The translations under genes were made by a program, and so were the position numbers. Shown piece by piece: positions 26,517 through 31,049 of a stretch of 53,345 nucleotides of DNA (position 1 is the first letter of the stretch; every line of letters begins with the position of its first letter). The DNA comes from Escherichia coli (GTDB taxonomy: Bacteria; Pseudomonadota; Gammaproteobacteria; Enterobacterales; Enterobacteriaceae). Location of the stretch: the NCBI RefSeq assembly GCF_003334405.1, contig NZ_QOWM01000021.1. One strand, given 5' to 3'. A model generated the notes under the pieces. It was not told the origin of the DNA, did not search any database, and worked only from the letters and a program-made list of their open reading frames with translations.

Positions 26517-28553
26517 TTAGATGCTTTTTAACGACGCGAACAGTGCCGCCCATTCGCTATCGGCGCGATAAAAGACCGGCGGCTTGCCGATGGGCGCATT
26601 AACGGTAACTTCCCCGCCCCGGAACGCTTCACCCGTCCAGGCGTGGACCCAGTTATCCTCCGGCAGATAGAGCGTCCAGTCGCTACGGCCTTCTTCATGC
26701 ACCGGAGCGACCAGAATGTCGCGACCTAACAGATACTGATATTTCAGGGTGTAAGTGTGCGCATCGTCTTCGTAATGCAGGAACAGCGGGCGCATAACCG
26801 GCAGGCCGGACTTCGCATTCAGCGCGACGGCCTCTTTCAGGTAAGGTTTCAGGGTGGTGAAGACGGTGGTCATACGGGCGAAATGGGCGATGGTTTCTGC
26901 GTCGCCGTCAAACTGCCAGTTGTCGCCAGGACGGTTACCTTCGTGGGTGCGCATCATCGGCGTGAAGGCGCTGAAATCGCACCAGCGCAGCAGCAGCTCT
27001 TTGCTGCGCTTCATCTCAAACAGGGTGGTGTAACCGCCAATGTCGCTGTGGTGCAGGCCATGTCCGGTCATTGCCAGCGACAGCGCCGCCGGGACAACCG
27101 ACGCCAGGCCATCGTCGAGACTCCAGTCGACGTTCTGGTCGCCCGCCCACATCATGGTGGAGTATTTCTGGCTACCGGTAGAACCGGCGCGCATAAAGAA
27201 AAGGATCTCGCCGAGCTTGCCCGTTTCTTCAAGGGCTTCGTAGTTACACTTCGCCCACAGCGCAGGCCAGGCGTTATGCATAATTTCGGCACTGACGCCG
27301 TTATGCAGGTACGTGTCGGTGGGCAGATACTCGCCGAAGTCAGCCATCCAGCCGCCGCAGCCGAGTTCAATCATGTTCTTTTTGATCACTTCCTTGAACC
27401 AGGCGTAGGCTTCTGGATTAGTGAGATCGACAACGCCGCCGTAAAACTCGCCAAACTCCACCAGATAGTCACCGCCAGAGGCATCTTTTGCCAGATAGCC
27501 GTGTTGTGCCGCTTCTTCGCAGAGATCTTTATCGCTGGCAACATACGGGTTGATATAGGCCAGGAACTGCACGCCCTCCTGATTCCACTGCTTAATGCGT
27601 GAATCCAGTTGCGGGTAGTTTTCGCTGTTCCACTTCCAGTTCCACATCACGCGTTTGCCAAAAGAGGTCATACGAATACCGGACCAGTCCTGCGCCCAGA
27701 TGCCGTTGACCTTCACGCCCGCGTTACGCATGGTGTCCAGTTTCTTCTGGCACACTTCCGTCCCGCCCTGAATGCCGAGCGTTACTCCGTCATAAATCCA
27801 GTCGGGCAGTTCTGGCTGGCGTCCCAGCAGGGCGGTTAATTTTTCCAGCAGGGAAATGTATGTGTCAGCACATTCAAAACGCAGCGTTGCTTTGTCTTCC
27901 CACAGCGCCAGTTCATGGTATTCCGGGGCACTAAAGTCGAAGTTCATATAGCAACTGTTATCAACATGGCAGTAATACTTCTGCGTGCTGACAAACGTAG
28001 GCTGTGGGAAGAAAGTCCAGTAATAGTCGCCGCCCGCATTTTCTTTGCAGTCGGCCTGCCAGGTGACATAGGTTTGTTTGTTGCGACCAACGCCTTGTTC
28101 ACTGGTCCATAGCGGGAACGGTTTGCCACGCAGATCGAAGTAGGAAAACTGTTCGCCGCAGCCGTAGATATGGTCCTCTGGTTGAGCGGCAAGGCGCAGC
28201 CAGATACGGTTGTGGTTAAGGTTGTCGTTTTGTAGTTCCAGCAATAAACGCCCCTGATCGTCGGCAGAGATATTCAGCGTGGCGCTAATGTCAGAACCAC
28301 GGCTGAAATGAATTAACCAACCATCCGGTGACTGGCTGACGATGGCGTCGGTAAGCGCAATTTTCTCCTGTAGTTTATCTTTAATGCTGAAATTACCGCG
28401 GAACATATCGATATCCGCTATACCTGAGCCAATCCATAAACAAGGATTATCTTTGCTATGGGTTAAAATAAGACGTTGTTGAAAATGTAGGGTAAAACTG
28501 TCGTTATTCTGATGAAATTGAAAATCTAATAACTGTGGACGTGGCGTATCCAT
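26517..28553 (-). CDS. yihQ: Sulfoquinovosidase (GH31 family) YihQ
   Basis: 678-aa ORF; GH31-type motifs around GIWAQDWSG and WMADFGEY. Confidence 0.9.
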   Translation of the reverse strand: MDTPRPQLLDFQFHQNNDSFTLHFQQRLILTHSKDNPCLWIGSGIADIDMFRGNFSIKDKLQEKIALTDAIVSQSPDGWLIHFSRGSDISATLNISADDQGRLLLELQNDNLNHNRIWLRLAAQPEDHIYGCGEQFSYFDLRGKPFPLWTSEQGVGRNKQTYVTWQADCKENAGGDYYWTFFPQPTFVSTQKYYCHVDNSCYMNFDFSAPEYHELALWEDKATLRFECADTYISLLEKLTALLGRQPELPDWIYDGVTLGIQGGTEVCQKKLDTMRNAGVKVNGIWAQDWSGIRMTSFGKRVMWNWKWNSENYPQLDSRIKQWNQEGVQFLAYINPYVASDKDLCEEAAQHGYLAKDASGGDYLVEFGEFYGGVVDLTNPEAYAWFKEVIKKNMIELGCGGWMADFGEYLPTDTYLHNGVSAEIMHNAWPALWAKCNYEALEETGKLGEILFFMRAGSTGSQKYSTMMWAGDQNVDWSLDDGLASVVPAALSLAMTGHGLHHSDIGGYTTLFEMKRSKELLLRWCDFSAFTPMMRTHEGNRPGDNWQFDGDAETIAHFARMTTVFTTLKPYLKEAVALNAKSGLPVMRPLFLHYEDDAHTYTLKYQYLLGRDILVAPVHEEGRSDWTLYLPEDNWVHAWTGEAFRGGEVTVNAPIGKPPVFYRADSEWAALFASLKSI

Positions 28554-28751
28554 AACTAATCTCCATAGAGTTGAGAACGAGATTGTTGCCTTCCTGTTAT
28601 TACAGGCTTATGTAAAATGATTCTCATAAAACTGATATATAAAAACTTTACAGAAGCTGAGCTGTTTTTAACTTAATAAATTGAAGATACATAATGTTGC
28701 CTTTAGCGAGTGAAATGTTCTTCAATGATTTTGACTGCTAATCAATACAAG

Positions 28752-29678
28752 TTATTTTCTCTGTCCGTAAATATTAAAAAACAGGCGGTGCGGTTTTCCT
28801 GATTCCAGTAATAATAAGTCGATACCTGAATTAAAGGCGTTAGGCGGGCAACTCATAGGTTCAACTGCCAGTCCCTGACGCTGTAATTTTTCACCGCTAT
28901 AAACCTGCACCCAGAGTTGATCGGAACAAAGGCTTACCGAAAGCGCCTGCTGTGGATGGGTAATGGTCATTTCCCACAAATCATTAGCGGTTTTAAAGGT
29001 GTGGTCGATTTTTGTCGCGGCTATTTTTTTCGCCTGCGTGAAATTTAAATCCAGCTCATCAACGTGGTGAAGCGTTGTCGGATTCGCGTGCTCATCGACG
29101 GCATAAACCTGGTTTGCCGGAAGCTGGAACAGATATTCATCAACAGATGTTAAGTTGCAGGTTAAATAAGGATGAATACCCACGCCATAAGGCGCTGCGA
29201 CAGTGCCGATATTCTGGCTTGCGATCTCAACGGAAAGACCCGTGTGTGCGTTGAGCGAATAAACAACTTGTGAAGCCAGCATAAACGGATAGCCGTAACT
29301 GGGCGGCAGAAAAGCTGTCAGGGTAACGCTGGTGGCGGTTAATTCACTAATTTGCCAGTCTCGCCAGGCAAGCAGCCCGTGAATAGCGGCTTTTGAACTA
29401 TGTTCATTAATGGGTAACTGATATTCCTGCCCCTGATAGCGGTAACAGCCGTTGGCGATCCGGTTCGGCCACGGAATAAGCACTTTACCCAGATGCGCCA
29501 GCGGCATCTCTTCGGGTTTGTGCGGGATGACTAAATGACAACCCTGAAAGGTTAATTCAGCCAGACCAGCACCGACGGTCACAATGGTCGCGTGATAATC
29601 CCCCGCGGCAAGTGAAACGGTCTGTCCACTGCAATGCATATTGGTGATTTGCATACAAGGCACCTTAATTAACGACAT
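28752..29678 (-). CDS. yihR: Aldose-1-epimerase family protein YihR (sulfoquinovose mutarotase)
   Basis: 308-aa ORF in the expected position between yihQ and yihS; family assignment from memory of the K-12 annotation. Confidence 0.85.
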   Translation of the reverse strand: MSLIKVPCMQITNMHCSGQTVSLAAGDYHATIVTVGAGLAELTFQGCHLVIPHKPEEMPLAHLGKVLIPWPNRIANGCYRYQGQEYQLPINEHSSKAAIHGLLAWRDWQISELTATSVTLTAFLPPSYGYPFMLASQVVYSLNAHTGLSVEIASQNIGTVAAPYGVGIHPYLTCNLTSVDEYLFQLPANQVYAVDEHANPTTLHHVDELDLNFTQAKKIAATKIDHTFKTANDLWEMTITHPQQALSVSLCSDQLWVQVYSGEKLQRQGLAVEPMSCPPNAFNSGIDLLLLESGKPHRLFFNIYGQRK

Positions 29679-29699
29679 ACAGCCTCCCGTGAGGCTGAT

Positions 29700-29770
29700 G
29701 TCAAACCCAAAAACTGCACCGGACGGTCCCCTCGCCCCTTTGGGGAGAGGGTTAGGGAGAGGGGAAAACC
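29700..29770. repeat. GC-rich palindromic intergenic element (box C-like)
   Basis: ccggacggtcccctcgcccctttggggagagggttagggagaggggaaaacccgcaccc; resembles a small dispersed repeat family in enterobacterial genomes; the family name is uncertain. Confidence 0.35.
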
Positions 29771-29791
29771 CGCACCCTATTTTCAGATCAG

Positions 29792-31033
29792 TTATTTCGC
29801 ATTAATATCCAGCAGACCCGCTGCAACCGCTGGAGCCATGCCGGGCGCTAACGGGATACGCGGGATCACCAGGCAATGCAGCAGGTGATAAATATCCTGT
29901 TTGCCGTCCCAGACTTTGGTGGTGACCTTATTGTCCGCATCCAGCTCCTGCCACCAGGAACCATTTTCATAGTCCATCAGGTACTTAATGCAGTACTCCC
30001 ACCATGTTTGATACCAGGTTTCATACTGGCGATCGCCAGTGACGGTGTAGAGCGCGTAGGCCGTACCCATTGCTTCGACGATAGGCCAACGTACACGTTC
30101 GCGGACCACCGGTTTTCCTTCCCAGTCAACGGTATAAACAATCCCGTCCGCGCCATCGGGTGCCCAGGCATCGCGCACGGTGGCGTTAAACAGACCTTTG
30201 GCATCTTCTAGCAGCCATGCTGGTGGTTGTTCGCAACGGGCTTCCAGGGCAGCATGGATGTGCAGCATTAAACGGCCCCATTCGATCCAGTGGCCTGGTG
30301 TACCTCCGAACGCGCGGAAGCGATGCGCCGGGTTATCTTTGTTGTAATCCGGCAGCGGATTCCACTGGGTATCGAAGTGTTCGTTAACGCGATAATGATT
30401 ATTTCTGGCGACGTCGTGGATAATCACGGAAGCCACGCGAATCGCGCGATCCAGCCATTTTTTGTCGTGAGTGACGTCATAAACAATCAAGAAAGCTTCC
30501 ACCGCGTGCATATTGGCATTGCCGCCGCGGTACTCTTCGGTTTTGCTGAAGGCTTCGTCCCAGGATTCCAGGCACATCTGCTCTTCTTCGCTCCAGAAAT
30601 ATTTCTCGATAATTTCAATGGTGTAATCGAGCAGCTTGCGCGCTTCCGGGTGACCCGTTGTGACGGCGCTGGCGGCACCCAGCAGAGCAAAGAAGTGTTG
30701 ATAGCCCTGTTTGGAGGCATCCACCACGCCCTCGTCATTCACGCAGGCATACCAGCCGCCATATTTTTTATCACGCAGTGCGCCGTTCATGGCTTTGATA
30801 CCGTGATCAACCAACGAGTAAGCGCCAGGTCGACCCATCGCCGCAGCAACGGAATAAACGTGCAACATACGAGCGGTGATCCACAGATGGGTGCCCATCT
30901 CTTCTTTGATTTGCCCTTTATTGCCTAACCAGCCAAAACCAGTCGGCACTACGGAATTTTTACCAAAATCAAAGATGCGGTCGGTTTCCTGTTCCAGCCA
31001 ACGGTTGTGGCTTAGGGTGTTAAACCATTTCAT
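29792..31033 (-). CDS. yihS: Sulfoquinovose isomerase YihS
   Basis: ORF-track frame trimmed to [21 protein letters not shown] (ATG 31033), 413 aa. Confidence 0.9.
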
Positions 31034-31049
31034 TCCTTTTATCCTCATC

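Follow-up and report, generated by a model that had tools for sequence, protein, structure and literature searches.

By its sequence, the GC-rich stretch that separates yihS from yihR in this Escherichia coli contig is a copy of the repeat catalogued as BoxC, PIT or TMECO, and as such it was already known. We regard it as probably a repeat that is prone to form structure and is largely neutral or selfish; in the yihS-yihR spacer it would be a lineage-specific variant and not a dedicated regulatory site. In the window, that is, the whole 53,345-nt stretch of DNA that was analysed, the GC-rich string occurs once, at 29729-29764 on the + strand, and it matches the family pattern exactly. The core reads CCCTCGCCC-CTTTG-GGGAGAGGG-TTA-GGGAGAGGG-G and is composed of block 1 (CCCTCGCCC, 29729-29737), loop 1 (CTTTG, 29738-29742), block 2 (GGGAGAGGG, 29743-29751), loop 2 (TTA, 29752-29754), block 3 (again GGGAGAGGG, 29755-29763) and a terminal G (29764), all on the + strand. 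A C-rich block thus comes first, and the two G-rich blocks after it are mirror images of one another. With TTA as the second loop and one mismatched triplet, the core belongs to type A, subtype 'A mm'. Block 2, loop 2 and block 3 together also make up a four-run G-tract, GGGG-AGA-GGG-TTA-GGG-AGA-GGGG.

The TMECO intrastrand triplex motif has been defined as CCCTCNCCC-N3-6-GGGNGAGGG-N3-GGGNGAGGG (Holder et al. 2015, PMC4666352). This published pattern has one exact match in the window, at 29729-29763 on the + strand, against a chance expectation of 0.00 mean matches in 100 dinucleotide-preserving shuffles. According to Holder et al. (PMC4666352), TMECO is the same element as the earlier BoxC (Bergler 1992) and PIT (Hoyne and Maher 2000); BoxC is the first of these names and PIT a later one, and further work under them is found in Bachellier 1999 and Hoyne & Maher 2002. 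Descriptions of the family go back to 1992, and the very copy studied here stands in two published tables. The identical 36-mer is TMECO no. 21 of 23 in E. coli K-12, listed as 'A mm' at NC_000913.3 4,070,452-4,070,487 on the + strand (Table 1, PMC4666352), and the yihS-yihR site is HPGQ 48 of the HPG1 class, placed between yihR (operon gene 4/4) and yihS (3/4) (Kaplan et al. 2016, PMC5100583). The yih copy carries A, not T, at the fourth base of block 3 and is the sole K-12 copy to do so (Table 1, PMC4666352), with the result that blocks 2 and 3 form a perfect mirror repeat.

The initial annotation had described the stretch as a BoxC-like small intergenic repeat that is unlike REP. The first part of this description is borne out by the exact BoxC/PIT/TMECO consensus fit, by flanks shared with nine other K-12 copies and by the two catalogue entries, and the second by alignment with BoxC copies over ~70 nt, by the three-block motif and by the lack, on inspection, of a REP-type palindrome in 29700-29791. 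The covariance models of Rfam 15, run over 28500-31000, returned only two chance-level matches (E = 4 and 9.9), far below the gathering score, and thus no matching RNA family.

The element is strictly intergenic. Both flanking genes, yihS (29792-31048) and yihR (28752-29678 as the longest ORF, with a PGAP start at 29654), lie on the - strand within the sulfoquinovose cassette yihQ-yihR-yihS-yihT-yihU, in agreement with the earlier placement of the repeat between two co-directional catabolic genes. The core is located inside the 113-nt spacer between the yihS stop codon (TAA, 29792-29794, - strand, from the ORF list and the annotation) and the upstream yihR ATG, 27 nt past the former and about 49-50 nt ahead of the latter; the distance to the stop codon agrees with Suppl. 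Table S2 of PMC4666352, where TMECO no. 21 lies 27 nt from yihS and 49 nt from yihR. Because the yih genes are on the - strand, they are transcribed from the G-rich + strand as template, and their mRNA carries the C-rich complement of BoxC.

The repeat extends beyond the core. Ten K-12 type-A copies, the yih copy and nine single copies taken from NC_000913.3, were compared ungapped and in register. Over the last ~21 nt left of the core, column agreement climbs from a background of 3-5/10 to 6-10/10, giving a conserved left flank at 29708-29728 (+ strand, consensus cAAaAacG.Gc.CGgACGGTC), while on the right the similarity runs ~14 nt beyond the core (consensus GAAcAgcccggcac), with a conserved right flank at 29765-29777 (+ strand, consensus (G)AAcAgcccggcac). 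All ten copies, including that at fabI/envM, keep the 5' flank ...CGGACGGTC and the 3' flank GAA...GCAC. From these shared flanks (~21 nt left, ~14 nt right) the repeat unit spans ~29708-29777 in the window, or ~70 nt. One of the nine compared copies adjoins fabI (envM), the site of the original BoxC description, and a second K-12 copy inside an operon lies between pstA and pstB. Copies of the family are found in both orientations relative to transcription.

The sequence is far from unique in the genome, as the earlier description had anticipated. With the 113-nt spacer as query, blastn found 18 places in K-12 MG1655, the same number as the published genomic sites, the published K-12 list holding 23 motifs at 18 sites with five inverted pairs (PMC4666352). 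Each of the 5426 complete E. coli genomes has matches, at a median of 16 places, and 47 of the 78,468 places are on plasmids.

At individual loci the repeat may be present or absent. Among the 5426 complete genomes, a BoxC-bearing yihS-yihR spacer is present in 2248-2334 (2212 at >=99% identity) and a BoxC-free spacer in ~1645, the latter alleles being diverse (80-100% identity). Most of the remaining genomes are without yihS-yihR entirely, in line with the 'short yih cassette' of PMC12608037. Measured from the PGAP yihR start, the spacer is 67 nt without BoxC and 137 nt with it, and this 70-nt difference equals the BoxC unit defined by the family alignment. Strain TCM3e1 has a truncated copy in which the perfect block 1-block 2 hairpin is kept and block 3 is missing; Holder et al. 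report a like decay of TMECO copies (PMC4666352). Other loci behave differently from one another. BoxC is present at zntA-tusA in nearly all genomes, and at adk-hemH the BoxC-free strains carry a wholly different 53-nt spacer compared with the 157-nt K-12 spacer. The K-12 type of adk-hemH spacer is seen in ~2900 genomes and the other type in ~2500, and the 53-nt type has a terminator-like hairpin. The BoxC-free yihS-yihR spacer contains the stretch ...TGTAGCCTGATATGCCG..., which we take to resemble the GTAGGCCTGATAAG tail of REP and which may be a decayed REP.

A discrete ~70-nt unit with conserved flanks that equals the indel at the locus, many near-identical copies per genome with a copy number that differs strongly between strains, and the frequent inverted pairs in E. 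coli and in Mitsuaria (below) are what would be seen if BoxC units were non-autonomous mobile elements copied into new spacers by a trans-acting enzyme, as REP/REPIN sequences are by RAYT transposases. We consider this very unlikely. No target-site duplication or clean empty site was found at yihS-yihR, where ~20 nt adjoining the unit also differ, or at adk-hemH, where the spacer is replaced wholesale. A tblastn search with E. coli RayT of the 1.07 Mb that surround 166 copies in other phyla recovered no homologue, and a published search found no association of the family with transposons, phages or plasmids, in keeping with the small plasmid-borne fraction given above.

Rather than a clean insertion, the locus shows turnover of the surrounding DNA. 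A comparison of K-12 with an O157 strain gives 93.9% identity for yihR, against 97.2% (12 kb left) and 98.0% (8 kb right) for the flanks. The diverged yihR patch of ~1.2 kb, at 28610-29780, is bounded by two spacer indels or polymorphisms, of which the BoxC spacer is one, and its sequence suggests that it may have been imported by recombination. At the other end of yihR, between it and yihQ, O157 AR-0430 carries an additional gene of 876 nt whose annotation is TauE/SafE-family sulfite exporter (12317-13192 of the compared locus). This gene is missing from K-12, whose yihQ-yihR spacer (window 28611-28743) is AT-rich and unrelated; the idea that this spacer is a remnant of the O157 gene was dropped, as similarity does not extend past the first ~66 nt. 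'TauE' does not occur in the 2025 publication that describes the long and short yih cassettes. TMECO loci are reported to sit in unusually variable spacers (Holder et al., PMC4666352), and the K-12/O157 and spacer variation fits that variability, which is a correlation and not proof that BoxC causes it. The persistence and spread of the repeat may be tied to such local sequence turnover, as the published correlation would imply.

The same three blocks occur in multiple copies well outside E. coli. A consensus scan of GTDB species genomes found them in at least 120 stretches from at least four organisms, Mitsuaria chitosanitabida, a Methylomirabilota MAG, Candidatus Contendobacter and another MAG, and the TMECO motif had already been reported in 262 genomes (Holder et al., PMC4666352). 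Among the loci listed, Mitsuaria chitosanitabida (Burkholderiales) holds most of the 166 motif matches. Its copies are often head-to-head inverted pairs 50-230 nt apart, with a constant loop GCTTGC and a tail TCTTCGGG. Across E. coli, Contendobacter, Mitsuaria and the Methylomirabilota MAG, the stem blocks are nearly invariant among the matches listed, while loops and flanks are lineage-specific. Such conservation of the three stem blocks in distant phyla looks, from the sequences, like the outcome of selection, for structure or for a recognition site, and not like neutrality, and it speaks against a purely passive repeat. Read as sequence recognition and not self-folding, it would make BoxC the binding site of a putative DNA- or RNA-binding protein. 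We hold this to be extremely unlikely, as no known transcription-factor motif matches the element (Kaplan 2016, PMC5100583), the neighbouring genes share no common function or distance, and the pattern of loops and spacing is what a fold-back structure requires.

Folding of BoxC has been shown in vitro for the family. In the yih copy, ViennaRNA predicts that blocks 1 and 2 pair as a Watson-Crick hairpin and that block 3 stays free, at -8.6 kcal/mol (z -2.2) as DNA and -16.1 kcal/mol (z -2.7) as RNA, and the whole yihS-yihR spacer folds with z -3.7. In addition, CCCGCACCC in the right flank can pair imperfectly with block 3, giving a second small hairpin in both the predicted DNA and RNA folds. 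Oligonucleotides of the G-rich strand of the family fold, by CD and NMR, as a very stable intramolecular purine-motif triplex; the 'A mm' oligonucleotide has a Tm of 74 C and 18 imino signals by NMR, the yih variant with A in block 3 being outside the measured set (PMC4666352). Depending on the ions, such oligonucleotides also adopt a G-quadruplex or a hairpin (PMC5100583), and they stall polymerases in vitro.

These data can be combined into a mechanism. When single-stranded, the G-rich + strand would pair blocks 1 and 2 as a hairpin, and block 3 could fold back as a third strand to form the intramolecular purine-motif triplex shown in vitro for family oligonucleotides; a G-quadruplex of the G-rich part is a possible alternative. 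From the location of the element on the map, clockwise of oriC, its G-rich + strand would serve as lagging-strand template and thus be transiently single-stranded. A replication-strand bias of the family was considered and found not convincing, since the G-rich strand is the lagging-strand template in 8 of 13 single copies (Table 1, PMC4666352). Two further observations speak against the structure-prone reading: the one copy probed by in vivo DMS footprinting, TMECO no. 3, gave no detectable triplex protection (PMC4666352), and the link between the family and instability is correlative. In the transcript the possibilities are fewer, as the purine-motif triplex cannot form in RNA according to the literature, and BoxC in the mRNA would therefore be only a GC-rich hairpin without a U-run. 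The C-rich complement would be transcribed in this plain form within the sulfoquinovose-induced yihUTSR message, with transcription passing on into yihR.

Several lines of evidence indicate that transcription does pass. Promoter and terminator scans of both strands over 29600-29800 gave no terminator-like site and nothing in the spacer, and the nearest U5 run lies 17 nt past the RNA hairpin. In RegulonDB yihU-T-S-R is one operon with yihR as gene 4/4, and in MG1655 yihR reads rise on sulfoquinovose from 0 to 142 and 148 (PMC12608037 Table S3). Since yihR is induced downstream, the element is not an efficient terminator. The same shallow data set gives, on sulfoquinovose, ~467 reads per kb for yihS and ~156 for yihR, a drop of about 3-fold, along with ~192 for yihU, ~336 for yihT and ~338 for yihQ, from low counts in which adjacent genes vary 2-3-fold (PMC12608037 Table S3). 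The drop from yihS to yihR is weak evidence of a partial barrier or of differential stability. The initial annotation had proposed to check for a transcript 3' end at the element; the scans and reads speak neither clearly for nor clearly against one.

Such a drop raises the possibility that BoxC is an intercistronic RNA element, its C-rich hairpin, alone or with the adjacent 12-bp hairpin, acting in a REP-like manner to shield yihS from 3' exonucleases or to terminate in part, so that YihS would be made in excess over YihR. The stable predicted RNA hairpin, the low z of the whole spacer and the second intra-operonic K-12 copy at pstA-pstB are consistent with this. Nevertheless, the hairpin is followed by no U-tract, the read counts are low with 2-3-fold variation among the other adjacent yih genes as well, and copies exist in both orientations relative to transcription. 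Reporter studies of the family likewise found no promoter, terminator or conjugation effect. Moreover, a strong hairpin is already present in the BoxC-free alleles, and BoxC is therefore unnecessary for such a role. We judge this explanation unlikely.

The hairpin in question adjoins the repeat. The initial annotation had noted a DNA hairpin, CAGCCTC-ccgt-GAGGCTG, at 29680-29697; it is real, and as - strand RNA it extends to 12 pairs. This locus-specific RNA hairpin (29674-29702, - strand, GACAUCAGCCUC-ACGG-GAGGCUG(U)AUGUC), of which 29680-29697 is the upper 7-bp stem, has a predicted energy of -19.1 kcal/mol (z = -5.5), which none of 200 shuffles reaches. Its absence from the other nine K-12 copies shows that it does not belong to BoxC. 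In BoxC-free alleles a different, equally strong hairpin occupies a like position (~275-310 of the loci), at -20 to -25 kcal/mol versus -19 in K-12. The base of the stem is homologous between alleles (GACAU/AUGUC), the upper part differs, and the hairpin lies directly 5' of the yihR ribosome-binding site. These features suggest that the hairpin, and not BoxC, is the conserved intercistronic feature of the yihS-yihR spacer. On the opposite strand, O157-type alleles show a hairpin followed by a T-run.

The position of the hairpin bears on the start of yihR, as its 3' arm contains GGAGG and the ATG at 29678. The K-12 annotation of a 308-aa yihR starts at this ATG (29676-29678). In BoxC-free alleles the upstream ATG is 28 nt from the next ATG and out of frame, and it is missing in TCM3e1. 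The PGAP start codon (29652-29654, - strand, 300 aa) is conserved, with a Shine-Dalgarno sequence AAGGTG (29661-29666, - strand) six bases upstream of the ATG at 29654. Because the ATG at 29654 and its AAGGTG are conserved and the ATG at 29678 is not, the 300-aa PGAP start is the better supported.

Two more active roles can be imagined at this locus: BoxC and the adjacent hairpin might together be an RNA barrier that sets the ~3:1 yihS:yihR message in K-12-type strains, or BoxC might mark the breakpoint of the ~1.2-kb yihR patch by promoting recombination. We consider these decidedly unlikely. The RNA barrier, if true, would be a REP-like post-transcriptional role of BoxC that earlier reporter tests missed. 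Overall, the exact consensus, the multi-copy status, the indel equal in size to the unit, the lack of a terminator or Rfam signal in the scans described and the local turnover make a passive repeat the best explanation, and for the family as a whole BoxC is most likely a passive, structure-prone repeat without an established function; a search of the literature after 2016 for a newly assigned one yielded none, the matches concerning the unrelated rRNA boxC. The label BoxC/TMECO repeat suits the stretch best in an annotation, and it should not be entered as a terminator or regulatory site of the sulfoquinovose operon. For comparisons of yih expression across strains it is relevant as the mark of a spacer that varies among E. 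coli lineages, and its location inside an inducible operon is the only special handle that the yih copy offers on family function.

Comparison with known systems places the element as follows. REP and BIME sequences are similar in being short GC-rich palindromic repeats of E. coli spacers, sometimes within operons, and an intra-operonic REP can stabilise the upstream mRNA. They differ in consensus, which is unrelated, and in architecture, REP being a two-arm palindrome and BoxC a three-block mirror plus complement. REPs also have their own RAYT transposase, and proteins that bind them are known; we know of no dedicated transposase or binding protein for BoxC. The mirror repeats of H-DNA resemble BoxC in their homopurine mirror and complement, in the possibility of a purine-motif triplex and in polymerase stalling in vitro. 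All three BoxC strands, however, lie on one DNA strand, and folding thus requires single-stranded DNA, unlike the supercoil-driven extrusion of H-DNA. The boxC of the rRNA antitermination signal and the boxC subunit of pneumococcal BOX elements share the name only, being unrelated in sequence, organism and function. The HPG1 class is the same element, read by Kaplan et al. (2016, PMC5100583) as a switch between G-quadruplex, hairpin and duplex and not as a triplex. With BoxC/PIT/TMECO itself the yih copy agrees in exact consensus, 'A mm' subtype, intergenic position, flanks and multi-copy status, and it differs by one base only, block 3 being GGGAGAGGG instead of GGGTGAGGG, which places an A*A-T triad where the family has T*A-T.
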